This document shows positions 9,076 to 51,099 of a DNA stretch of 64,000 bases, in pieces. The DNA comes from a bacterium (GTDB taxonomy: Bacteria; Bacteroidota; Ignavibacteria; Kapaibacteriales; UBA2268). The stretch covers positions 63,538 through 127,537 of the forward strand of contig JAZDIP010000104.1 in NCBI GenBank assembly GCA_043804925.1. The letters are read 5' to 3'. The notes under the pieces were generated by a model. The model had not been told where the DNA came from and searched no databases. It worked only from the letters and a program-made list of their open reading frames with translations. Made by a program: the position numbers and the translations under genes. Every line of letters starts with the position of its first letter. Position 1 is the stretch's first letter.

Positions 9076-9192
9076 ATAAAAAATAATTTGAATAAATCCT
9101 AATAAAAACTTAACTTAATAACTTTCATATTTACTAATTGGAAATAATTTATTGTATAATTTTTTAAGCTAAAATAAAACAAGGAGTGTTAC

Positions 9193-11232
9193 ATGGCAGA
9201 TGAGAAAAAGTTTATGCCTTTCGTTCCGGCAGAATCGAATATGGCAGAGTTTACGATTAAGGCGCTTCTGATAGGGCTAATATTGGCAGTTATACTTGGT
9301 GCCGCTAATGCATATCTTGGTCTTAAAGCGGGTATGACTATCGCCGCTACATATCCGGCGGCAGTCATCGGTATGGCTTTACTCAAGATTTTCAAAGGCT
9401 CGATATTAGAAGAGAACATGACAAGAACAGTTGGTTCCATCGGTGAATCTGTCGCCGCAGGAGCCATTTTTACAATCCCGGCATTTTACATTGCAGGACT
9501 TTGGGACCCATTCCTGACTTCCGAAACTTATATAACTGCAACATTGATACTCGTTTTCGGTGGTATTTTGGGTATCATGTTTGTTGCATTATTGCGAAGA
9601 GTTATGGTTGAAGATACCGACCTTCCATTTCCTGAATCTGTTGCTGCAGCAGAAATACACAAGACAGGACGTTCCGGCGGGAGCAGGTCAAAATTCCTTT
9701 TTGGTGCAATGATTGGCGGTGGAGTCGTCAAAGTTTTAACCCAATTACATATTGTCCCTCAGATATGGGAAAAATTCGTTATTTTTTCAAAACAGGTGGT
9801 TACAGGAACACCAATAGCAGGACAGGGCGGAATGCTTTTAAGTTCTCCCGGTATTAGCCCTGCATACATGGGTGTTGGGTATATAATCGGTCCACAACTT
9901 GCATCACTTAACTTTTCCGGTGGAATGTTGGCTTGGGGTTTATTGGCTCCAATAATTTTATATTTCCTTGCACCAAATCTCGATTTCGTCGAATGGGCAA
10001 ATATGCTTGTACTAAACAAAGGATTTTCGGAAGCCGAAGCTTGGGCTAAAGTTAACGACCCGCAATTTCAGATTATAGAAGTCTGGAAATATATCGTTCG
10101 TCCTATTGCAATAGGTGGTATGTTGGTTGGTGCTTCATTTACATTATTCAGAATGAGAAAAAGCTTAATTGCAGGTATTGTCCGCTCAGTCAACGATGTC
10201 AAAAAAGCCGCATCAGGAACGAGTGTTACTACAGATAGAACGGAAAAAGATATGCCTTTTACATGGATTATGTTCGGTATTCTGATTGTAGCTATTGCAA
10301 CATTTTTAATTACTTTTATGATTTTCAACACCACATTCCTGATTGCATTTGTTGCTTCAACTGTGATGATTATATTGGCATTTTTCTTTGCGGCAGTTTC
10401 AGGTTATTTAGTTGGTATAATGGGCTCGAGCAATAATCCAATCAGCGGATTGACCTTAACTGCACTTGTAGTAACGGCATTAATTTTGGTTATTTTGGGT
10501 GTAACTGCGGATTCCGGAGGTGTTGCGGCTGTATTGGGAGTTGCTGCTATTGTTTGTGTTTCTGCCGCAGTAGCAGGTGAAATGCTCCAGGATTTGAAAG
10601 CAGGACATATATTGGGTGGTACACCATGGAAAATGCAGATGGGCGATATCATCGGTGTCGTTCTTTCCGGTGTAGTTATGTTTGGAGTTTTGGCTTTTCT
10701 TAACGATGGCGATATTGCTATGGGACAAAAATTCGGTTATGACGGTGGTTTCGGCAGCAGGACACTTTCCGCTCCGCAAGCAGGATTAATGGCAATCCTA
10801 TCCAATGGAATTGTTGGCGGTCAAATGGCTTGGCCCCTAATTATTGTCGGTATGCTTATGGGAATCGGATTTATATTAATGCAGGTTAAAAGTCCTATGT
10901 TGGTTTCTGTCGGCATGTACTTGCCTTTGGAAACAACATTTGCAATTTTTGTAGGCGGCTTAATTAAAGGCATAGTTGACATGATGACTAAGAATAAGGG
11001 TTTTGCACCAAATCAACTTGCTAATATCGAAAACGTGGGAGTGCTGCTTGCCTCGGGCTTCATAGCCGGTGAAGCACTAATGGGATTAATCTTTGCCGGA
11101 CTTGCAGTCGGTGATATTATTCCTGATGCTGTCTGGCCCGGCTCACCGTTCTACCTTAGTTTGGTTGTTCTTGTAATAATCGGATATGTTTTAGTTCGGT
11201 TACCATTAAAGAATGCCGGAGCAAAAGAATAG
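9193..11232 (+). CDS. OPT-family oligopeptide transporter (about 16 predicted TM helices).
   Basis: 679 aa polytopic protein. The N-terminus FTIKALLIGLILAVILGAANAYLGLKAGMTIAATYPAAVIGMALLK is typical of bacterial OPT transporters. Confidence 0.75.
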   Translation: MADEKKFMPFVPAESNMAEFTIKALLIGLILAVILGAANAYLGLKAGMTIAATYPAAVIGMALLKIFKGSILEENMTRTVGSIGESVAAGAIFTIPAFYIAGLWDPFLTSETYITATLILVFGGILGIMFVALLRRVMVEDTDLPFPESVAAAEIHKTGRSGGSRSKFLFGAMIGGGVVKVLTQLHIVPQIWEKFVIFSKQVVTGTPIAGQGGMLLSSPGISPAYMGVGYIIGPQLASLNFSGGMLAWGLLAPIILYFLAPNLDFVEWANMLVLNKGFSEAEAWAKVNDPQFQIIEVWKYIVRPIAIGGMLVGASFTLFRMRKSLIAGIVRSVNDVKKAASGTSVTTDRTEKDMPFTWIMFGILIVAIATFLITFMIFNTTFLIAFVASTVMIILAFFFAAVSGYLVGIMGSSNNPISGLTLTALVVTALILVILGVTADSGGVAAVLGVAAIVCVSAAVAGEMLQDLKAGHILGGTPWKMQMGDIIGVVLSGVVMFGVLAFLNDGDIAMGQKFGYDGGFGSRTLSAPQAGLMAILSNGIVGGQMAWPLIIVGMLMGIGFILMQVKSPMLVSVGMYLPLETTFAIFVGGLIKGIVDMMTKNKGFAPNQLANIENVGVLLASGFIAGEALMGLIFAGLAVGDIIPDAVWPGSPFYLSLVVLVIIGYVLVRLPLKNAGAKE

Positions 11233-36998: not shown

Positions 36999-38195
36999 AT
37001 GGTATTAAAATCTGAAATAGAATTAGCTTACACGTTGCAACAAAAAATGCAACCTAATAAATCTTTTATTAAAAGATTGTATCTCGATAATATAAGATAC
37101 AAAGACCCTCATATTGAAGTTATATCCGGTATTCGCCGATGTGGTAAAAGCACTCTGTTAAACCAGATAATGAAGAAGTTCGAAAAAACTGCATTTTTTA
37201 ATTTTGAAGACCCGCGAATTTTTGGTTTTGATTTGGGTGACTTCCAAAAGCTTGATGAAATAATGGGTGATAATATAGATGCTTATTTTTTCGATGAAGT
37301 GCAAAGTGTCGATAAATGGGAAATCTTTGTCAGGCAAATTCATAACAAAAACAAAAAAGTTTTTATTACAGGTTCAAATGCAACCATGCTTAGCAAAGAT
37401 TTAGGAACAAGACTGACAGGAAGACATATTCGACATGAATTGTTTCCTTTTTCCTATAAAGAATATTTGAAATATAAAAAATTACCGGATAACTCCAAAT
37501 CTTATGAGTTGTACATAAAAGAAGGAGGTATGCCGGAATTTTTAAGGGATGCAAATCCCGAGATATTACAAACGCTTTTACGTGATATTGTCTTTAGGGA
37601 TATTTCAGTTAGATATAATATCAAAAATACAAAAACTTTAATGGATTTGACATTGTATTTGTTATCCAACATCGGTAAGGAGTTTTCTTTTAACAGCTTG
37701 AAAAAACAATTTTCGGTCGGTTCGGCATCAACAATTTCCGATTATTTGTCATGGCTCGAAGATGCATACTTGTTCTTTTATCTGCCTCGTTTTAGCTGGT
37801 CTTCAAAAAATATGTCAGTAAACCCGCGTAAAGTTTACGCTATAGATACCGGCTTGGTTCAATCCAATTCCCTGAGCTTTACTGAAGACAAAGGAAGATT
37901 GCTCGAAAATGCCATTTTCTTATATCTAAAGCAAAAGTCATATAAGATTTTTTACTTCAGGGAAAAAGTTGAATGTGATTTTGTTATTTTTGATAATGAC
38001 AAATTAAAAATGCTTGTTCAGGTTTGCAATGAATTGCATCCCGATAATAAAGACAGAGAAATAAATGGATTATTAAATGCAATGAATTTCTTTGATTCCA
38101 AGGAAGGATATATCATAACATTGAAGACAAAAGATAAATTGAAATTTGATAATAAAATAATACATATTCTCCCTGCAAATGAATTTTGTAAATAA
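36999..38195 (+). CDS. AAA+ ATPase of the AAA_14/DUF4143 family (stand-alone predicted ATPase).
   Basis: Walker A GIRRCGKST; Walker B FFDEVQ; C-terminal DUF4143-like region (YFREKVECDFVIFDNDKL...). Confidence 0.7.
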   Translation: MVLKSEIELAYTLQQKMQPNKSFIKRLYLDNIRYKDPHIEVISGIRRCGKSTLLNQIMKKFEKTAFFNFEDPRIFGFDLGDFQKLDEIMGDNIDAYFFDEVQSVDKWEIFVRQIHNKNKKVFITGSNATMLSKDLGTRLTGRHIRHELFPFSYKEYLKYKKLPDNSKSYELYIKEGGMPEFLRDANPEILQTLLRDIVFRDISVRYNIKNTKTLMDLTLYLLSNIGKEFSFNSLKKQFSVGSASTISDYLSWLEDAYLFFYLPRFSWSSKNMSVNPRKVYAIDTGLVQSNSLSFTEDKGRLLENAIFLYLKQKSYKIFYFREKVECDFVIFDNDKLKMLVQVCNELHPDNKDREINGLLNAMNFFDSKEGYIITLKTKDKLKFDNKIIHILPANEFCK

Positions 38196-43022: not shown

Positions 43023-44342
43023 ATGATAGGACTGGACAACCAGGTATTAAACAGTGCAAAGATACGTGTTATCGGAGTTGGTGGCTGCGGGGGAAATGCC
43101 ATCAACAACATGATTGAAAAAAACCTAACCGGCGTAAGTTTTATTTCAGCAAACACGGACAAACAGGTGCTGGATACTAATTTGGCACAAATGAAACTTC
43201 AGATAGGGAAGGAAACCACACGTGGTCTGGGTGCAGGAGGCGATCCTGAAGTCGGCAGAATTTCTGCTGAAGAGAATATCGAGGAAATAAAGGAATCTTT
43301 GCTAAACAGCGATATGGTTTTTGTTACTGCAGGGATGGGCGGCGGAACTGGAACCGGAGCCGCTCCAATTATTGCTAAGGCAGCAAGAGATATGGATGCA
43401 TTAGTAGTGGCAGTTGTTACCAAACCTTTTTCGTGGGAAGGCAAAAGAGCTAAAATCGCCGAAGATGGAATTAATGAATTGAAGCAATTTGTTGATGCTT
43501 TGATAACAATCCCAAATCAAAAGCTTTTGGAAATAACAGATAAAAAGGTAACTTTTAAACAATCATATATGATTGTTGATGATGTTTTGTATAATGCTAC
43601 GAGAGGTATTTCCGACATAATCACCAAGCCGGGTCTGGTTAATGTGGATTTTGCCGATGTACGCAGTGTGATGAAAGGACAGGGCGATGCTTTGATGGGT
43701 ATTGGTATTGCTTCGGGAGAAAACCGGGCGATTGAAGCAACTAAAAATGCTTTGAATTCTCCGCTTTTGGAGAACGTATCAATAGCCGGAGCCCAGGGAG
43801 TTCTTGTCAATATTACGGGTAACGAAGAAATAACAGGTTTACACGAGATTGCCCAGGCAATAGCAATGATTGAAGAATGTGCCGGTCCTGAGGTTAATTT
43901 AATCCATGGTGTTGTTCTTGTTAGCGAACCGATGGAAGAACTGATGGTTACCGTTGTAGCTACCGGGTTTAATAATAAAGCCGAGAGGCCAAAAATGCAA
44001 AGACCCGCATTGAATCTTGGTTTTAAGGAAAAAGACATGTTCAACTTAAAACCAAAACAAGTTAGCGATATTTCTTTTGACAGAAAAGTTGAAACGATAC
44101 CCGAAAAGGTTGCAATACCGATGGGACGGCAGGTCAGCCCAAGAGGCGAAGATGAATTAAAAAAGCTCGATGTTCCGACTTTTATTCGAAGACTTGGAAA
44201 TCCTGAAGAACAAAATTCCTTAAATACTGACCAAGCTGTGCAGAACAGCGCTGAAAAAGTTCCTGCAGGATTGGGATTTGACAAAGCCGCTTCCTTAAAA
44301 AACTATGACCAGCCGGCGTTTTTAAGGAAGATTATGGACTAA
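43023..44342 (+). CDS. ftsZ: Cell division protein FtsZ.
   Basis: Tubulin signature GVGGCGGNAINNMI and GGGTGTGAAPIIA. The ATG at 43023 is preferred over the ORF-track TTG at 43008. Confidence 0.85.
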   Translation: MIGLDNQVLNSAKIRVIGVGGCGGNAINNMIEKNLTGVSFISANTDKQVLDTNLAQMKLQIGKETTRGLGAGGDPEVGRISAEENIEEIKESLLNSDMVFVTAGMGGGTGTGAAPIIAKAARDMDALVVAVVTKPFSWEGKRAKIAEDGINELKQFVDALITIPNQKLLEITDKKVTFKQSYMIVDDVLYNATRGISDIITKPGLVNVDFADVRSVMKGQGDALMGIGIASGENRAIEATKNALNSPLLENVSIAGAQGVLVNITGNEEITGLHEIAQAIAMIEECAGPEVNLIHGVVLVSEPMEELMVTVVATGFNNKAERPKMQRPALNLGFKEKDMFNLKPKQVSDISFDRKVETIPEKVAIPMGRQVSPRGEDELKKLDVPTFIRRLGNPEEQNSLNTDQAVQNSAEKVPAGLGFDKAASLKNYDQPAFLRKIMD

Positions 44343-44435
44343 TGAAATTGTTATATCAGCGTAATTATTTCTGTTGGTTGAAATTACTGACAGATTTAAA
44401 TATTGTATTTTGATTTCTCCCAAGGAATGAAAATT

Positions 44436-44467
44436 AACCGTCTTGGCTTGCTGAGACGGTTTTTTTA
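44436..44467 (+). terminator. Rho-independent terminator downstream of ftsZ.
   Basis: aaccgtct-tggcttgctg-agacggtt followed by TTTTTTT. Confidence 0.7.
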
Positions 44468-44860
44468 AATGAAATAAAATTTTTTTAGTTGTTTGTCAAA
44501 GAACGATGCAATAGTTAAAGTTGCGGTGCAATTCATGGGCTTTGTATCTCTTTTATTTCCTTGGCATTAGGAGCATCAGCGGAAAAAGTTGCATCAATTT
44601 CACCGATTTTTTCAGTTTTATTATCTGTTATCTGTAATCCATTTTTCGTTATTTTATAAAACCGAAATCAATTTACAAAGAACATGCTGGACAAATTTAG
44701 TTGTTAGGTATTAAACGTAATGGAAATTATTTTAAAAGGACTATTATTTTGTTCTCGGTTGTCAGTTATCGGTATCGGTTGAAAACGAAACAGTATCCTT
44801 CGACAAGCTCTGGAAGACCGCAGACAGCAGACAGCAGGCGGGAGGAAGAGAATACAGTTA

Positions 44861-45516
44861 CAGACAGATTCACTGAGGAGGCATGGAGGGACACAGAGAA
44901 GAAGTCTGAACCGTTGATTGTAGCTGATTGAACTGATTTTGGTGATTATTAACAGCGTAGCTGTGGTATCTATTATGTCGCCACTACGTGGCTTTGAGCG
45001 TTGTTGGTTGTCGTGTGCTACAAAGGTGATACCACTACGTGGTTAAGAATTTCTGTCGGAACTGGGATTTTTAGGATTTATGGGATGGACAGGAAAATTG
45101 CTGTCAGATGTAACAAAGACAGAACGAAATTAAAATGTAAAATGTAGAATGTAGAATGTAGAATTGAAGGCAGTTACACGGAGCTACACAGAGGAGGCAC
45201 AGAGGGACACAGAGAAAATGTCTGAACCGTTGATTGTAGCTGATTGAAATGATTTCGCTGATTTTTTTAACAGCGTAGCTGTGGTATCTTGGTAGAAAAA
45301 GTGAACCAATAGCGGTTTGAACAGCGTAGCTGTGGCATTTTTATATAATCGTAATTAGTAATCGTTAATTCGTAATTGAATCAATGCCGCCACTACGTGG
45401 CTTTGGTCGTTGTTGGTTGTCGTGTGCTACAAAGGTGATACCACTACGTGGTTAAGAATTTTTGTCGGAACTGGGATTTTTAGGATTTTTGGGATGGACA
45501 GGAAAATTGCTGTCAG
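44861..45516. repeat. Two tandem copies (about 44861-45107 and 45174-45516) of a composite repeat unit.
   Basis: The unit contains CACAGAG words, tctgaaccgttgattgtagctgattgaa, aacagcgtagctgtggtatct (x3), ccactacgtggc hairpins, gtcggaactgggatttttaggattt and a ctgtcag hairpin. AATGTAR heptamers (45121-45163) lie between the two copies. Confidence 0.7.
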
Positions 45517-45748
45517 TTGTAAAAAGTGACAGGACGGGAAAGCCACAGAGCCACACACCCCCTACCCCCCTCTTGATAGGGGGGACAAGAGACCCCACCC
45601 CTGCTCTCCCCGAATCAGGGAGGGAGAAGAAAGATGTAATCTTTAGGCGATATTTTTTTCCTCATCGCTTTTTGCTGTCAGGTGTAGGAACTGACAGAAC
45701 GGAATATTACCTCAATTTATTGATTCGAATGAGTAATTATATATACTA

Positions 45749-46327
45749 CTAAGGAGCTTCTTTTATTTTTAATATATTTTTTAATTCATCAATTACTTTT
45801 TTTAAATCATCAATTTCTTTTCTAAGTTCAATTTCCTTTAATCCTTTAACTAGTTTATCAGTTAATACAGCCAGGAGACTAGAAAAAGCATTAGTTATTG
45901 AATGTAAAGTTTGCGGTAAAAAACCACTTAATCCTAAGAAAGCAAAAACAAATAAAAACAAATCCGACCAATCTAGAACTATTTGGTTACCACATTCCAC
46001 AATGTTCAAATTTTTTCTTGCAAAAATATACAAGCAAATCCACCCAAAAAATCCACCCATGAAATTAAAAACGAATTGTAAACCACCATGAACAATATGA
46101 TGATATAAAAAAACACTATTAAATGATTTCCAAGGTTTTTCAAAATTCTTTTTTAATTCAATTTGATTTTTTGTATCATTTTCATATTTTTCATGATTAA
46201 ATATATAATTTGCCTTGTTTGATCTAGTGTCATGCCAATAGTATCGAAGACCAAAATATAAACCAAAAATTGTTGCAAAATAAATCCAAGAATCAGCTAT
46301 AAATTCAAGAAATTTTTCGAGATTCAT
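45749..46327 (-). CDS. Hypothetical membrane protein (192 aa; about 3 TM helices plus a C-terminal coiled coil). Second gene of an unknown two-gene cassette.
   Basis: TM segments WIYFATIFGLYFGL, VFLYHHIVHGGLQFVFNFMGGFFGWICLYIF, LFLFVFAFLGLSGFL. C-terminal KEIELRKEIDDLKKVIDELKNILKIK. No recognisable family. Confidence 0.5.
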   Translation of the reverse strand: MNLEKFLEFIADSWIYFATIFGLYFGLRYYWHDTRSNKANYIFNHEKYENDTKNQIELKKNFEKPWKSFNSVFLYHHIVHGGLQFVFNFMGGFFGWICLYIFARKNLNIVECGNQIVLDWSDLFLFVFAFLGLSGFLPQTLHSITNAFSSLLAVLTDKLVKGLKEIELRKEIDDLKKVIDELKNILKIKEAP

Positions 46328-46354
46328 ATTATCTCCTTTCTGTAAATTATTTAA

Positions 46355-46993
46355 TTAATACAACGACAATGATCTTTGTCTAAAAATATAAAAGTAATTC
46401 AAAGTTGGATTTTTGGTAAGTTCATCACCATTAGCGAGTGAATACTCAAAATCCACATCAAATTTTAAAATTTCATCATCTCCATAATTATTTTTTTTAT
46501 TGTAGTAAATGTCTTTATAACTTTCACCTGCTAATTTTAAATATCTATCGATATCAATCCATCCATTAAAGATCCCAAATGGTTGAATTGTACGGTATTC
46601 TTTACCTCCATAAAAATCATTTGTTTCATACAGTTTACCAAAAACTACAGATTTTATAATACATCTACATTTTAAAGGATATTTTGTGAAATTTTGCATA
46701 ATAACCCTAAACTCATGATTTTCATGTACTGTACCTAGAGGTTCATATTTCTTTTGATCTTCCGCTGAAATTAACTTTACACTTGCACTTAAAATTAAAT
46801 CCTGTCGATAAATTTTGTAGTTATAATAAGTATAATAAATCAAAGCTATAAAGGTAATGAATAAAATGAAATCATTGTTACTTAGATTCATATGAAAACA
46901 AAATCTTAGTAATAAATAAAAAATGAACCATAACAAAATAATTAGGAAAATTGATTTAAATTTTTGAAAAAATTTTATACTTTTATTTTTCAT
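46355..46993 (-). CDS. Hypothetical membrane protein (about 212 aa; 2 N-terminal TM helices plus a ~150-aa soluble C-terminal domain). First gene of the unknown two-gene cassette.
   Basis: The ATG at 46993 with an AAGAGGTG RBS is preferred over the ORF-track start at 47020. TM helices IFLIILLWFIFYLLL and FILFITFIALIYYTYY. The C-terminal domain has no known motif. Confidence 0.5.
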   Translation of the reverse strand: MKNKSIKFFQKFKSIFLIILLWFIFYLLLRFCFHMNLSNNDFILFITFIALIYYTYYNYKIYRQDLILSASVKLISAEDQKKYEPLGTVHENHEFRVIMQNFTKYPLKCRCIIKSVVFGKLYETNDFYGGKEYRTIQPFGIFNGWIDIDRYLKLAGESYKDIYYNKKNNYGDDEILKFDVDFEYSLANGDELTKNPTLNYFYIFRQRSLSLY

Positions 46994-47013
46994 ATAACAC
47001 CTCTTAATTATTT

Positions 47014-47110
47014 TATTCATAAAACATATTTATTTCTTCTTCAGGTGTATCTATTCTTTTCACACTCTTTGTCGGAACTGTGATTTTTGTGATTTGTGTG
47101 ATTTTTATGA
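47014..47110. repeat. Left direct repeat of a ~55-bp pair flanking the GxxExxY gene, plus a GTCGGAACTGTGATTTTTGTGATT word repeat.
   Basis: attattttattcataaaacatatttatttcttcttcaggtgtatctattctttt closely matches 47644-47700. gtcggaactgtgatttttgtgatttgtgtgattttt is related to 45055, 45465, 47558 and 47611. Confidence 0.65.
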
Positions 47111-47153
47111 TAAAACAAAATCATGTTTTCATATTAATCATATAAATCATAGT

Positions 47154-47552
47154 TCAGACAATTTGTTTGTATTTCTTATTTTCAAATCTTTTGAACTCAA
47201 GACTTTGAGCTCCAAAATTAATCAACAATCCGATTTCCAGATTGTATGCTTCCAAATAATTGATTGCCTGTGCTAAATGAACTTTCTCCAATTCAATCAA
47301 TGCTTTCAACTCAACTGAAATTTTATCTTCAACAAGAAAATCAACTCGTCTTTCACCAACTTCAACGTGTTTGTAATGAACTTTTATTGGTTGTTCTCTT
47401 ATGAATTTTATCTTTCTTAGCCGGAATTCTTCTGCTAATGCTCTTTGATAAATCAACTCCTGAAAACCATTGCCTAATGCTTTGTGTACTTCTAAAGCAG
47501 CACCAATAATTTTTGATGTCAATTCCGAATATTTATATTTTTCATTTATCAT
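47154..47552 (-). CDS. GxxExxY-family protein (PD-(D/E)XK nuclease-like), second copy.
   Basis: SKIIGAALEVHKALGNGFQELIYQRAL (GxxExxY) ... RVDFLVEDKISVELKAL. 132 aa. Flanked on both sides by direct repeats. Confidence 0.75.
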   Translation of the reverse strand: MINEKYKYSELTSKIIGAALEVHKALGNGFQELIYQRALAEEFRLRKIKFIREQPIKVHYKHVEVGERRVDFLVEDKISVELKALIELEKVHLAQAINYLEAYNLEIGLLINFGAQSLEFKRFENKKYKQIV

Positions 47553-47557
47553 AATTT

Positions 47558-47700
47558 TTTGTCTGAACTATGATTTTTGTGATTAATATGATTGCTGAGA
47601 TTATATTTGTCAGAACTGTGATTCATATGATTTTTATGATTGCCATGATTATTTATTATTCAAACATATTTATTTCTTCTTCTGGGGCATCTATTCTTTT
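47558..47700. repeat. Right-hand repeats flanking the GxxExxY gene: two GTCTGAACTATGATTTTTGTGATT-type words and the right copy of the ~55-bp direct repeat.
   Basis: tgtctgaactatgatttttgtgatt..tgtcagaactgtgattcatatgatttttatgatt..gattatttattattcaaacatatttatttcttcttctggggcatctattctttt. Confidence 0.65.
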
Positions 47701-47810
47701 GCTTGATTTCTTAAACGTTGTTTGCAATCCTTTGCCGGGGATTTGGACGGATTTGTGCATCTCCTTAAGCACATCGAGGCAGTTGCCGTAGTAGAGTTCG
47801 TTCATTACCT
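47664..47810 (-). pseudogene. Remnant of a DNA methyltransferase N-terminus (49-codon ORF); its 3' end forms the right direct repeat.
   Basis: The minus-strand ORF reads MNELYYGNCLDVLKEMHKSVQIPGKGLQTTFKKSSKRIDAPEEEINMFE. MNELYYGNCLDVLKEM is the classic N-terminus of N6/N4 DNA methylases (MNKLYYGDCLEVLK...), but the sequence diverges after ~16 aa and stops. A decayed copy of the same tail (KRIDTPEEEINMFYE*) sits at 47020-47068. Confidence 0.4.
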
Positions 47811-47820
47811 TAGTTCATAA

Positions 47821-47940
47821 AGTTTATAAAGTATAAAGTTTAAAAGTTTAAAAGTCCCAAAAGGAAAATTACGAAAGATTTGAGAGAAAAGCAAGAAGTC
47901 TGAAGACAGAAGTCAGAAGTCTGAATTCTCGTGAACCGAA
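47821..47940. repeat. Word-repeat spacer: (AAAGTTTAWAAG)n, then (GAAGTCWGAAGAC)n.
   Basis: ttagttcataaagtttataaagtataaagtttaaaagtttaaaag ... aagcaagaagtctgaagacagaagtcagaagtctgaa. Confidence 0.6.
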
Positions 47941-48038
47941 AACCGAAAAAATCACTTATGAAAAGGACATCTTATTATTCGTTGTGTTACCATAGTACAA
48001 TCCCTATCGGGATAGGCAATTGTTAATTGTTAATGATA

Positions 48039-48062
48039 TCCTTCGACAAGCTCAGGATGATA
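48039..48062. repeat. Hairpin repeat family copy in reverse orientation (atccttcgacaagctcaggatgat), preceded by (TTGTTAA) words.
   Basis: Reverse complement of the 11237 copy (atcatcctgagcttgtcgaaggat). Confidence 0.6.
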
Positions 48063-48390
48063 GGAGAAGGGGAGACGGCAGACGGCAGTCAAAAAGACAG
48101 AAAAATAAAAGATTTACAGGCAGGTGAAAGCCCAATTGTTTACATACTTTGCCCTGACAGGTTTTGTACTTCCGGCTTTGCCGTTGAACAATTCTCTTGA
48201 AATTGATGCGAGGTATTTAAAACTGTTGTTGGATTTAGAAAATTCCCCCTTTTCGTTTTCTCTATCATTTTTTAAATTTGAGAAAGCGAAAGAATAGTTG
48301 TATAATTCTATACCGTATCTGAATTCTGAGTGTATTCCCATTGTATTACCCAATCTATTTTATATATTAATTTAAAAAATTTGTGCGGAG

Positions 48391-48437
48391 CTATTAAGTA
48401 ACTATCTATAAATTGATAGCCCCGCACGCATTTATGA
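48391..48437. other. Strong isolated hairpin (12-bp stem with one mismatch, 21-nt loop) in non-coding DNA.
   Basis: gtgcggagctat-taagtaactatctataaattg-atagccccgcac. Confidence 0.5.
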
Positions 48438-49001
48438 AAACAAAATTCCCTTAAGCCGTCCAAATGTTCAGACATCTGTGCCAAATCCTTAATGCCCGAA
48501 GTTATGTGGGATTACTTGAGGTTCAACTATGATAAAAATCTTTTAATATCAATCAAACTTCCGACATTAATTTACTAATCCAAAAACCCTATCTATATTT
48601 ACCGAAAATGGCTGATTGCTCAAGAGAAAATAATATTTAAAAAATTATTTGGTCAATAAGCTAATCAAAAATTCTCCATCATATTGAAAAAATCTGTCCG
48701 GGAATTTTAAAACGGTTTCTATGAGGTTCAACTATGAATTACAAACTGGGCTTGCAAATCCCGGACAAATAATTTTTCTATAAGGAAATATTCTGTTTTC
48801 AAATAACAATCATAAAAGTACAAATAACTACATACAAAAAAACGAAATAGTATAAGCTTTAAATATAACTGTTTATATGATTTTATTGTAGAATAACAAA
48901 ACAATTATATGTAGTAAAAATTACTACATTTATTTTAAATTATTTTGTTATTATTTCGATAATCGTCTTAAGAAAGTCGTCCCAGAGTAATTACCGGGAA
49001 T

Positions 49002-49043
49002 ATGAAACCTGAGTTTATTATGTGTTTCAGGTTTCATTTTTTG
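49002..49043 (+). terminator. Strong plus-strand rho-independent terminator with no upstream plus-strand CDS; implies an unannotated plus-strand transcript (candidate sRNA).
   Basis: atgaaacctga-gtttattatgtgt-tcaggtttcat (11-bp perfect stem) followed by TTTTTT. There is no U-run in the minus orientation, so it does not serve the convergent minus-strand gene. Confidence 0.65.
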
Positions 49044-49086
49044 AGATTTTTAGTTTACGGTGATATAATTATCTTGGAACTTTTCA

Positions 49087-49869
49087 TTATTTGCTTTTAA
49101 TGCAGGGGCAAATTTTTTCTTTAATGGAATTATCAATGGTAATGTCTTCAAAGGGTACAAAATTCTTCACTAATTTCTTAACATTTTCGTAACCTTTGTT
49201 GACTCCGTCTGTGTTATCGAGCCAATATTGGTATGCTTGCCCGTTGGTCAATCTGCAGAATTGCATTAAAATAGCCGCAGAAATATAACCCGATTGATGC
49301 CAGCCGTTCCAGCAATGAAAATATATGGGACCTTTTTCGGGATTATTAATAACATCTTTAACCATCAGCATAATCCTTCTCAACTCTTTTTTGTTATTTC
49401 CGCCAATCTGAAAATAATTCAATGTATCGTTTGTACTCTCACTGATAGCAAATTTTTGTGCAATTGAAAAATTTGTCCCATAAAGATAAACAGCCGATGA
49501 AAATCCCTGATTAGATAAATTTTTCAAACCATCTTCCGGTAGGGGATTATGATTATCTCTTTTATGGTTTTTATGATAAAAGTTATTTGCACCGCCACGG
49601 TATGCTATTCCATGTAATATTGTCCTTAAATTACGTGTTCCATAAAGCGAGTCATAGCCATTTCCGAAATTATCGGTTATTTTTTCATTAGCACATTTAT
49701 TCCCAAATTTATTTTTGAAATATTCGACCTTATCAATAGCAAGTAATTTGATAGACGAACCTGTTACAAAAAAGCAACACAACAGGTAAGTAAAAAAAAA
49801 TGCCGTAATTATTTTTTTGTTTTTAACAATACCCTTCAAACTAATCATAAATCTTTTATTAAGTTTCAT
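49087..49869 (-). CDS. Secreted PTP/DSP-fold phosphatase-like protein with a degenerate P-loop.
   Basis: Signal/TM N-terminus. GPIYFHCWNGWHQSGYISAAILMQF resembles the HCxxGxxRS/T phosphatase P-loop, but has Gln in place of the usual Arg (CWNGWHQS). Confidence 0.4.
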   Translation of the reverse strand: MKLNKRFMISLKGIVKNKKIITAFFFTYLLCCFFVTGSSIKLLAIDKVEYFKNKFGNKCANEKITDNFGNGYDSLYGTRNLRTILHGIAYRGGANNFYHKNHKRDNHNPLPEDGLKNLSNQGFSSAVYLYGTNFSIAQKFAISESTNDTLNYFQIGGNNKKELRRIMLMVKDVINNPEKGPIYFHCWNGWHQSGYISAAILMQFCRLTNGQAYQYWLDNTDGVNKGYENVKKLVKNFVPFEDITIDNSIKEKICPCIKSK

Positions 49870-49905: not shown

Positions 49906-51099
49906 TCAAATTACTCCCGAATCTTTTAATAATTGGATTTCCGTTTCTGAAAATCCCATTTCGGTCAATATCTCATTTGTATGTTCAGACAGTAACGGTG
50001 GGGGAGAATCCACAGTCCCGGGAGTTTTCTCAAATTTTGCTGTCATATTAAAAAGTTTTACAGTTCCAATTCCTTCGACATCAACAGAAGTAAAAGTATT
50101 TCTATGCTCGATTTGCGGAGATGTCAATGCATCAAATAAAGATAAAATCTCACCAGAAGGAACGCCTGCTTTATTTAATACTTCCGACCAATAAGAAGTT
50201 TCTTCCTCCACTAATTTTGCTTCTAATAAAGGTGTTAGCTTAAAGCGGTTTTTCTTTCGTGTATCTCTTTCCTTGAATCTCGTGTCTTCCTTTAATTCAG
50301 GAACCCCAAGCAAATCAGCAACGGCTTCCCATTGCTCCTGCTTGTTCGCCGCTATATTGATATAACCGTCTTTTGTTTTGAAAGTTCCCGAAGGTGCAGC
50401 AGTGAAATTATCATTTCCAAGTAGTTGCGGATGTTGACCACCAATTAATAAATTTGCCGCTACCCAACCCATCAAAGGCATTGTGGAATCAATCAAAGCA
50501 ACATCTATGAATTGACCTTCTCCGCTTTTTTCCCTGTGGTATAATGCTGACATAATAGCAAATGCTGCGTTTAATCCACCGACAGTATCGCAAAGCGGAA
50601 AACCTGCACGAAGCGGATTCAATCTCTCATCGCCATTGACAGCCATCACACCGCTCAAGCCCTGAATTATCTGGTCATAAGCCGGTTTCTTAGCATCAGG
50701 TCCGGTTTGCCCGAAGCCCGATATTGCACAGTAAATCAAATGGGGATTTATTTCAGATAATGCTTTGTAACCCAATCCCAATCGTTCCAAAACATCCGGT
50801 CTGAAGTTTTCGACTAAGACATCTGCAGTCGAAACAAGTTTTCTGAAAATCTCTTTAGCTTTATCTTCTTTCAGATTTAGAGTCATTGATTTTTTATTAG
50901 CATTTTGTGCAAGAAAGCTTGTACCCATCAGCTTTTTGTTATATTCAGGGACACAGCCGAGCTTACGTGCCAGGTCGCCTCCATCAGGATTTTCAACCTT
51001 AATAACTTCAGCACCCAACCAAGCCAAGTGCAATGTTGCAAATGGTCCCGACAAAACATTCGTCAAATCTAATACTCTAATTCCTTCAAGCAATTTCAT
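49906..51099 (-). CDS. CoA-transferase family III enzyme (CaiB/BaiF/formyl-CoA transferase-like).
   Basis: MKLLEGIRVLDLTNVLSGPFATLHLAWLGAEVIKVENPDGGDLAR is the hallmark N-terminus of family III CoA-transferases. 397 aa. Confidence 0.8.
   Translation of the reverse strand: MKLLEGIRVLDLTNVLSGPFATLHLAWLGAEVIKVENPDGGDLARKLGCVPEYNKKLMGTSFLAQNANKKSMTLNLKEDKAKEIFRKLVSTADVLVENFRPDVLERLGLGYKALSEINPHLIYCAISGFGQTGPDAKKPAYDQIIQGLSGVMAVNGDERLNPLRAGFPLCDTVGGLNAAFAIMSALYHREKSGEGQFIDVALIDSTMPLMGWVAANLLIGGQHPQLLGNDNFTAAPSGTFKTKDGYINIAANKQEQWEAVADLLGVPELKEDTRFKERDTRKKNRFKLTPLLEAKLVEEETSYWSEVLNKAGVPSGEILSLFDALTSPQIEHRNTFTSVDVEGIGTVKLFNMTAKFEKTPGTVDSPPPLLSEHTNEILTEMGFSETEIQLLKDSGVI

Follow-up and report, generated by a model that had tools for sequence, protein, structure and literature searches.

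Two rare membrane-protein families side by side in a variable spacer downstream of ftsZ: probably separate accessory genes

Two adjacent minus-strand genes, A and B, were analysed in a 64,000-nucleotide stretch of DNA (the window) from a metagenome-assembled genome (MAG). Judged by sequence comparison, they represent two unrelated, rare and hitherto unnamed protein families. The locus is probably best explained by two independently moving accessory genes that ended up as neighbours in a variable spacer, each being mobile as a single gene and their adjacency here a local accident rather than a conserved system. The initial annotation had proposed a two-gene cassette, but when 35 loci were scanned with family HMMs over six-frame ORFs, the two families occurred together only in the window. 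A and B are neighbours in this genome alone and are therefore better read as two separate accessory genes than as a two-gene defence system.

The pair occupies a variable, repeat-rich spacer that has ftsZ on one side and a CoA-transferase gene on the other, and it begins about 1.4 kb downstream from ftsA-ftsZ. Its neighbours in the window encode FtsA/FtsZ, a GxxExxY protein, a DSP-like protein and the CoA-transferase. The repeat TTGTCGGAACTGKGATTTTT is present in six copies, all within 45053-47626 (chance expectation 0.03). Two of them bracket the A-B segment in the same orientation (plus strand), one at 45462-45481 beyond gene B and the other at 47069-47088 just upstream of gene A. Directly upstream of A there is also a 49-nt direct repeat (47012-47060, plus strand), 88 % identical to its copy at 47652-47700, which constitutes the 3' end of a 49-aa ORF (47656-47805) lying beyond the GxxExxY unit. 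The GxxExxY / PD-(D/E)XK gene itself (47154-47552, minus strand), considered here for context only, matches TIGR04256 (E 2.3e-39) and PDDEXK_3 (E 1e-37) and is flanked by 33-nt inverted repeats (47129-47161 and 47559-47591), so the repeat island and the repeat-flanked GxxExxY neighbour described earlier were both recovered on mapping. The 49-aa ORF had been taken for a decayed DNA-methyltransferase N-terminus; it gave no match in Pfam, NCBIfam or PDB and its methyltransferase identity is therefore unconfirmed. Neither an integrase nor an attC site was found near the pair in the window.

As initially annotated, the genes are co-oriented and separated by 27 nt, the ORFs being 46355-47020 (A) and 45749-46327 (B), both on the minus strand. 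The spacer (46328-46354, minus strand) carries AAGGAG, a strong Shine-Dalgarno sequence of gene B, and no terminator was found in it. Given the short gap, the Shine-Dalgarno sequence of each gene and the lack of an intervening terminator, A and B are probably co-transcribed in this genome. The higher AT content noticed earlier was confirmed, with a GC content of 0.245 for the pair vs 0.333 for the window, and the segment 46001-47000 is the lowest-GC 1-kb bin of the window. The GC3 values of A and B (0.18 and 0.155, respectively) compare with 0.289 +/- 0.047 for 24 long ORFs, and the closest homolog of A, in locus L001, demonstrates a GC3 of 0.13 vs 0.31 for the murD gene of that locus. Both genes are compositionally atypical and of foreign composition. 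The tight spacing, the co-orientation and the common extreme AT bias would also fit a single acquired operon and to that extent count against accidental neighbours.

The reading frame of gene A stays open upstream to position 47020 (221 aa), and translation most likely starts at Met10 (46993), giving a gene at 46355-46993 on the minus strand and a protein of 212 aa. This start is preceded at a distance of 6 nt by the strong Shine-Dalgarno sequence AAGAGGTG, the alignment with homolog P0004 begins there, and NCBI annotates a protein of 212 aa. A is a real gene under purifying selection, with a dN/dS of 0.15 against a 78 %-identical homolog and of 0.10 in the soluble domain. Hydropathy analysis of the protein revealed a strong hydrophobic segment and a second, weaker one. 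In the AlphaFold2 (AF2) model (pLDDT 89) these form a two-helix transmembrane (TM) hairpin (residues 5-65 of the 212-aa form, 46799-46981, minus strand) whose helices span residues 5-32 and 39-65; a beta domain of about 145 aa comes next, in agreement with the earlier description of a 2-TM protein with a soluble C-terminal domain. The domain was confidently modelled as an Ig-like beta-sandwich (residues 70-211, 46361-46786, minus strand). It bears the family motifs, i.e. the conserved Cys C109 of the 212-aa form, NxS/T-K, CxC, (G)FYGG, QP and F-x-Y, and has NPxQxYYFDF at its C-terminus. The N-termini of the A family contain 65 K+R vs 13 D+E residues, and the loops 31 K+R vs 39 D+E. From this family-wide charge bias the hairpin is predicted to be N-in with the short loop outside, which would place the sandwich in the cytoplasm. 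Matches of A to membrane-anchored Ig-like, ApaG-like and TMEM106B-like sandwiches shared 4-12 % identity and no common motif; they reflect a generic sandwich and imply no function. The predicted cytoplasmic location of the A domain is a further difference from these proteins.

Gene B (45749-46327, minus strand, 192 aa) is likewise a real gene, having about 45 homologs. Its protein has two strong hydrophobic segments and a weaker N-terminal one, and the all-helical AF2 model (pLDDT 84) ends in a long C-terminal helix reaching KEIELRKEIDDLKKVIDELKNILKIK, which matches the earlier view of a protein with about three TM helices and a charged coiled-coil end. The charge bias across the family predicts the N-out/C-in orientation for this 3-TM protein. 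Most family matches span only a conserved core (residues 79-160, 45848-46093, minus strand) composed of TM2 (QFxFNFxGSxxGW), TM3 (LGLTG(H/F)LPQ) and an amphipathic helix, with N88, G91, G95, W96, G132, G135, L137 and P138 as invariant or near-invariant columns. The charged coiled-coil tail (45752-45850, minus strand) is specific to this lineage: it is missing from the remainder of the family, and among the homologs only the fragment P0002 has it. Within the tail, a 21-nt tandem duplication (45777-45821) encodes the heptads IDDLKKV/IDELKNI, and it is probably by this duplication that the amphipathic helix was lengthened to a coiled coil.

The claim that neither protein belongs to a described family held up, no Pfam, NCBIfam, PADLOC or PHROG model being found for either of them; at E <= 0.01 none of 43 members of the B family (0/43) matched any Pfam family. 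Word-index searches, in which the profile search covered up to 8000 candidates, gave for each protein the protein itself and one homolog. An exhaustive phmmer search with an A-X-linker-B concatenate against 1.84 billion representatives gave 82 matches. These fell into two distinct groups, full-length A-like proteins of about 200 aa and B-like proteins of 100-165 aa, and A-like and B-like sequences were never found on one protein or contig. Counted as cluster representatives, the A family comprises about 35 full-length homologs and the B family about 45, and all representatives of both come from metagenomes or MAGs. Among the 185,579 genomes of the GTDB species representatives, the patterns used detected the A family in none and the B family in 4. 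The pattern-derived search of IMG/VR was also negative for the A family. For the B family, 15 metagenome contigs and 4 MAGs contained a member, the IMG/VR search yielded no viral contig, and tblastn of A and B against phage and plasmid collections gave no match.

The gene contexts of the homologs indicate that the two families travel separately. The downstream DNA could be read in five A contexts (L001, L018, L023, L030 and L033), all of them lacking a B neighbour, and the upstream DNA in about 15 B contexts, none of which had an A neighbour. An all-vs-all BLAST of the neighbours in the first 15 B-family loci did not disclose a conserved partner of any other kind. Thus no conserved pair of homologs was found outside the window, the outcome that the initial annotation had itself named as counting against a module. 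In L001, blastn aligned positions 9985-10626 with window positions 46994-46353 at 82 % nucleotide identity; this segment comprises gene A only, the DNA homology breaks off 2 nt beyond the stop codon, and no other gene is common to the two loci. For the B family, the homolog in L003 is the only ORF in an integron cassette, which lies between attC sites (1607-1662 and 2094-2150) and adjacent to an integron integrase (TIGR02249, 476 bits). The contigs compared were mostly 1.4-12 kb long and the sampling of the families was thin, with close relatives represented by a single A homolog for which flanking DNA is available (L001) and by a single B fragment, which is chimeric (L002); the A-B pairing may be specific to a clade of close relatives of this MAG.

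The same data bear on a different explanation, according to which A and B form a true, lineage-specific two-gene operon, newly assembled from two free-standing parts, in which A senses or regulates and an oligomerising B permeabilises the membrane with an abortive-infection or toxin/antidote logic. The one-strand arrangement with a 27-nt gap, own Shine-Dalgarno sequences and no terminator between the genes would suit such an operon, as would the equally low GC3 of A and B, the direct TTGTCGGAACTGKGATTTTT copies around the segment, the lineage-specific tail of B and the defence-rich contexts of family members. It is nevertheless rather unlikely, as the pairing was confined to the window among the loci compared, the closest homolog of A is a lone gene whose similarity to the window stops at the gene boundary, and the searches of phage, plasmid and viral collections yielded no member of either family. 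Moreover, A is without a PADLOC model, and B has only a match to 2TM_IV (E 0.004), a retron lead that failed family-wide.

Two fusion proteins bear on whether the families are related in function. P0047 carries a full A and P0066 a full B, each joined to an N-terminal extension designated X, a TM-periplasmic-TM domain, so A and B could be alternative output modules of a wider membrane system, fusable to a common X domain, and their adjacency in the window would then reflect a common function. The two extensions are co-linear over 175 aa with 21 % identity (BLASTP E 1e-6), and their full-length Smith-Waterman score is 74 vs 29 +/- 4 for shuffles. Much of this score, however, is contributed by the hydrophobic ends, and the soluble core alone was equalled by 7 of 1000 shuffles. 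The explanation is improbable: each family contributes a single fusion, no Pfam family matches X, and X was not found in the window or in the other fetched loci up to L029. The similarity between the P0047 and P0066 extensions is nonetheless a hint of functional kinship of the families and as such counts against accidental neighbours.

The genes that adjoin family members often belong to restriction-modification, GmrSD, TIR, AriA-like, toxin-antitoxin, IS or prophage classes. Homologs of A were found next to GmrSD_N and HNH (L001), with a YafQ-type toxin-antitoxin pair, a terminase and a Mu-type portal (L018) and with HsdS of a type I restriction-modification system and PIN (L030). Other loci contained a TIR-pentapeptide protein and an AriA/OLD-like AAA_15 ATPase (L005), a homolog of that ATPase (L007), Type_ISP_C (L025) and Fic (L006), as well as, by eye from ORF translations, an IS4-like transposase (L014 and L016) and a Phd-like antitoxin (L013); the mobile or defence settings also include an integron cassette and a prophage edge. 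These recurrent neighbours support the status of A and B as accessory or variable-island genes, as the initial annotation had suspected from the neighbourhood of the pair, but do not support a two-gene module. A conflict-related role may be proposed by guilt by association, from a raw tally over about 20 loci. A bolder version, in which A and B are two new families of stand-alone membrane anti-phage or exclusion effectors, acting alone or fused to X as a periplasmic sensor, and the window holds a two-effector defence islet next to ftsZ, has a small chance of being correct.

The position of the pair about 1.4 kb downstream of ftsA-ftsZ, together with an A homolog divergent from murD-ftsW in L001, could alternatively point to housekeeping proteins of the envelope or cell division linked to the dcw genes. 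This reading is disfavoured and seems very improbable: in L001 the location and orientation with respect to the dcw genes are not the same as in the window, dcw genes are absent from the other A contexts (L018, L023, L030, L031 and L033) and from all B contexts, and both the extreme sparsity of the families among species-representative genomes and the atypical composition of A and B speak against it.

Known membrane systems were also compared with the two proteins. Cap15, an effector of CBASS, consists of two TM helices and, at the C-terminus, a small beta domain with a cyclic nucleotide as its ligand. A resembles it in its size of about 200 aa, its N-terminal 2-TM hairpin and its all-beta C-terminal domain of about 145 aa but, unlike Cap15, matches no PADLOC family at E <= 1, and no CD-NTase, nucleotidyltransferase or cyclase was found beside A in the window or in six A-family contexts. 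B is a small membrane protein, as is the 2TM effector of type IV (Ec48) retrons (NF038235; PADLOC 2TM_IV). Ec48-type membrane effectors reportedly kill by membrane permeabilisation. The N-terminal 85 residues of B matched both models weakly (NF038235, 18.9 bits, E 8.9e-4; 2TM_IV, E 4e-3). This candidate was rejected, the score being far below the 65-bit cut-off and the match being limited to one of 43 family members, the window protein, in its non-conserved N-terminal part. There was no retron reverse transcriptase among the neighbours of the pair, and an Rfam search of 43500-49500 at E <= 0.1 detected no RNA family and no retron RNA. With no significant PADLOC match and a retron-2TM match confined to a single sequence, the analogy to an abortive-infection layout drawn initially found no support.

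Bacterial TM-STING was rejected for B as well: a single-sequence match to 6wt5 (E 4e-4) covered TM3 and the lineage-specific coiled coil, and the B family profile gave no STING match at E <= 10. For SLATT and other 2TM-4TM defence effectors, no Pfam or PADLOC model matched B apart from the weak 2TM_IV hit. Class I holins have three TM helices in the N-out/C-in orientation and a charged cytoplasmic C-terminus. B, with its highly charged C-terminal tail, is of matching size and would resemble them in the topology and charge bias predicted for it; unlike holins, it has no PHROG or Pfam holin match, and no endolysin or lysis cassette was found beside about 18 B-family genes. An Sso10a-like gene upstream of the B homolog P0009 brought PANGU/NAP defence into consideration, a candidate that was rejected: PANGU uses YejK-like NAPs, and the A and B families are not listed among its components. 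Both families are sparse, unannotated and context-independent in the manner of ORFan integron cassettes, although, unlike such cassettes, the pair in the window is flanked by AT-rich direct repeats and the GxxExxY unit.

If A and B are indeed two separate accessory genes, each protein would act alone at the membrane, in a conflict-related or niche-specific role. A would be a membrane-tethered binding module whose N-in two-helix anchor holds the Ig-like beta-sandwich at the cytoplasmic face. B, an N-out/C-in three-helix protein with a conserved TM2/TM3 core studded with polar residues and an amphipathic helix in the cytoplasm, may be a small membrane protein that associates with itself and can perturb or gate the membrane.

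Should this explanation be true, A and B would be ordinary ORFan accessory membrane genes like those that make up integron cassettes and genomic islets, and the finding opens no long-standing question. Its value is descriptive, in that it delineates two families outside every public profile library, the A family with a confident fold combining a 2-TM anchor with a predicted cytoplasmic Ig-like sandwich, and the B family with a sharp TM motif, FNFxGSxxGW ... LGLTGHLPQ. Since both recur beside restriction, TIR, AriA/OLD-like and toxin-antitoxin genes, they may serve as low-priority candidates in single-gene screens for defence or exclusion functions.

The two membrane-protein genes lie on the minus strand of the window, in the same frame and separated by 27 nt: the upstream ORF A (46355..47020) encodes 221 aa and the downstream ORF B (45749..46327) 192 aa. 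The true start of A is most likely Met10 (46993), since AAGAGGTG is located 6 nt upstream of it, P0004, a homolog 78 % identical to A, can be aligned only from this residue and the NCBI record for the MAG annotates a 212-aa protein. B is preceded by AAGGAG, and no terminator-like site was found between the genes. A sigma-70-type promoter scan gave results at the level of shuffled sequence; the model is probably inappropriate for this host, a carrier of T9SS sorting domains. The pair forms the most AT-rich kilobase in the window, its GC content being 0.245 in comparison to 0.333 for the window as a whole, and the GC3 values of A (0.18) and B (0.155) compare with 0.289 ± 0.047 for 24 long ORFs. 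Two co-oriented genes 27 nt apart and richer in AT than their surroundings, as described in the initial annotation, are borne out. The dN/dS ratio between A and P0004 was 0.15 overall and 0.10 for the soluble domain; as judged from these alignments, A is under purifying selection.

No model in Pfam, NCBIfam, PADLOC or PHROG convincingly matched A or B, in agreement with the earlier statement that neither protein is assignable to a known system. A word-indexed search found for each protein only itself and one relative. An exhaustive phmmer search of 1.84 billion cluster representatives (E <= 1e-3) with the A-X-linker-B concatenate as the query yielded 82 matches, cleanly separable into an A-like set of approximately 35 full-length proteins of roughly 200 aa and a B-like set of approximately 45 proteins of 100–165 aa. 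The source metagenomes and MAGs of the two families differ widely in GC content. The B family was detected in 4 of the 185,579 species-representative genomes (two unclassified 'bacterium' MAGs, one Ca. Auribacterota MAG and one Nitrospiraceae MAG) and the A family, with the patterns used, in none of them; neither was found in the phage, plasmid and IMG/VR collections. A and B are real genes representing two undescribed families.

Two weak leads on B were followed and rejected. B scored 18.9 bits against the retron-Ec48 2TM model (cut-off 65 bits) and was also matched by PADLOC 2TM_IV; of 43 family members B is the only one to match, in the non-conserved N-terminal part, and no reverse transcriptase or retron RNA was found near B. 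The similarity to bacterial STING (6wt5, E 4e-4) covers TM3 and a lineage-specific tail and disappears when the family profile is used.

To assess the conservation of the pair, all 35 loci fetched were translated into six-frame ORFs and scanned with HMMs of both families. Both families occurred together only in the window: no B-like neighbour was present in the five informative A-family contexts (L001, L018, L023, L030 and L033) and no A-like gene in the approximately 15 B-family contexts whose upstream DNA could be read. All-versus-all BLAST of the neighbours in the first 15 B-family loci revealed no other recurrent partner. The only close B homolog is on a 582-nt contig of 0.9x coverage (L002, 1-582), in which an EF-G-like peptide (DWMPQERERGITIVSAATT) passes directly into B-like sequence; this contig is chimeric or frameshifted and hence unusable for the synteny test. 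In L003 a B homolog is the sole ORF of an integron cassette, adjoined by the integron integrase (476 bits versus TIGR02249) and flanked on either side by a canonical attC (GCCTAAC...GTTAGGT at 1607-1662 and ACCTAAC...GTTAGAC at 2094-2150). Positions 158-2907 of this locus represent a complete integron start with the integrase, an attI-like GTTAGGC at 1326-1332 and three cassettes, the second being the B-family gene, each terminating in an attC with near-identical cores. In blastn, L001, the locus of a related MAG with the closest A homolog, showed 82 % identity to the window across exactly gene A (46994-46353), the homology ending 2 nt beyond the stop codon. Since the L001 homology is confined to gene A and B constitutes a single-ORF cassette in L003, each gene is mobile singly; A and B each travel alone. 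The two-gene cassette or defence module proposed earlier is not supported: among these loci the families are paired only in the window, and the lack of a conserved pair is an outcome that the initial annotation itself named as refuting the idea.

The spacer between ftsZ (end at 44342) and the CoA-transferase gene (start at 49906) is 5.5 kb long and holds, amid repeats, only A, B, a GxxExxY gene (47154-47552, minus strand), a 49-aa ORF (47656-47805) and a gene for a 260-aa DSP-like protein with an N-terminal hydrophobic anchor (49087-49869, minus strand). The latter protein gave only weak dual-specificity-phosphatase matches (DSPc, E 0.003), and in its P-loop, HCWNGWHQS, Gln replaces the canonical Arg of CX5R. 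The 49-aa ORF had no match in Pfam, NCBIfam or PDB, and its earlier label as a decayed DNA-methyltransferase N-terminus was thus not confirmed. The six copies of TTGTCGGAACTGKGATTTTT in the 64 kb (0.03 expected by chance) are all within 45053-47626, and direct copies at 45462 and 47069 flank the A-B segment. TTGTCGGAACTGKGATTTTT is absent from L001; a tract resembling it, GGGATTAGG/GGATTTTTGG, occurs there just upstream of the A homolog. The GxxExxY gene is surrounded by a 33-nt inverted repeat (47129-47161 and 47559-47591, 94 %) and a 49-nt direct repeat (47012-47060 and 47652-47700, 88 %). The direct repeat is the duplicated 3' end of the 49-aa ORF ('KRIDxPEEEINMF(Y)E*'), and its proximal copy abuts the ribosome-binding site of A. 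From this arrangement the GxxExxY unit looks like an insertion between the 49-aa ORF and gene A, and the whole spacer resembles a hot spot of recombination or insertion in which unrelated cargo has accumulated. Another dispersed repeat, TCCTTCGACAAGCTCWGGA, has three copies in the window (11241, 44796 and 48039); in L001 (approximately 9091-9154) it lies inside the murD frame, MurD having an odd in-frame insert 'LRQAQDDRKKEKGEGRREKGED', perhaps a case of a core gene that tolerates a repeat element.

In L001 the A homolog has murD-ftsW on one side and a convergently oriented GmrSD_N+HNH gene on the other; in L018 it precedes a toxin-antitoxin pair of the YafQ type and genes for a terminase and a Mu-type portal, and in L030 it is located between type I HsdS and PIN genes. 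A defence-island-like stretch of L005 (632-5568) encodes a pentapeptide-TIR-DUF2188 protein, an unknown 221-aa protein, the B homolog and an AriA/OLD-like AAA_15 ATPase (PADLOC AriA, 2.5e-59), a BLAST homolog of which adjoins another B homolog in L007 (1-1302). Type_ISP_C and Fic are encoded near B-family genes in L025 and L006, respectively. Inspection of ORF translations by eye added a zeta-like ATPase (L006), a Phd-like antitoxin with a putative PIN partner (L013/L027) and an IS4-like transposase (L014/L016); the contexts in L026, L028 and L029 were unremarkable, the L028 gene lying beside a trpD-like gene (by eye). In the window an AAA_14 + DUF4143 ATPase is encoded approximately 8 kb upstream of the pair (36999-38195, plus strand), and a similar ATPase and a DUF3800-like gene, both recognized only by eye from a short motif, may be present near the B homolog of L010. 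Defence or mobile neighbours are frequent, but enrichment cannot be claimed from a sample of this size with no background set. These contexts support the weaker claim of accessory genes in variable, often defence-rich regions.

One residual link between the families was noticed. P0047 (A family, 411 aa) and P0066 (B family, 348 aa; L025 3132-4178) each carry an N-terminal TM-soluble-TM extension, residues 1-205 and 1-220, respectively. The extensions are co-linear, 21 % identical over 175 aa (BLASTP E 1e-6), and share a D/E-RGFP motif; over their full length they score far higher than shuffled sequences, but for the soluble core alone the score is only marginal, 7 of 1000 shuffles reaching it. 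In L025 the fused gene follows genes for the Type_ISP_C protein and a 289-aa unknown protein with gaps of 4 nt. Neither the window nor any other locus up to L029 contained the extension. Functional kinship of the families through this extension is a minority hypothesis, and it is rather improbable that A and B are two new stand-alone membrane defence effectors with a common sensor domain in their fused forms. We favour, with reasonable though not high confidence, independent single-gene accessory membrane proteins that are neighbours by chance and probably co-transcribed here.

The AlphaFold2 model of A (pLDDT 89, 33-sequence alignment) comprises long helices 5-32 and 39-65 followed by residues 70-211 as a compact all-beta domain that also includes two short helices. 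The K+R versus D+E counts in the family are 65/13 before TM1, 31/39 in the loop and 44/35 after TM2, so both termini are predicted inside and the beta-sandwich on the cytoplasmic side. Conserved columns include an invariant Cys (in CxC), N101, F127-Y128, Q137-P138 and F182/Y184. The B-family core consists of TM2 (QFxFNFxGSxxGW), TM3 (LGLTG(H/F)LPQ) and an amphipathic helix. The charged coiled coil reported at the end of B is present, though as a lineage-specific extension common only to the fragment P0002 and not as a family trait; it includes a 21-nt tandem duplication (45777-45821). Charge bias predicts for B an outside N-terminus, loop 1 inside, loop 2 outside and an inside C-terminus, a topology like that of class I holins. 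In biochemical terms, A would act as a cytoplasmic beta-sandwich tethered to the membrane and B as a small membrane protein that associates with itself.
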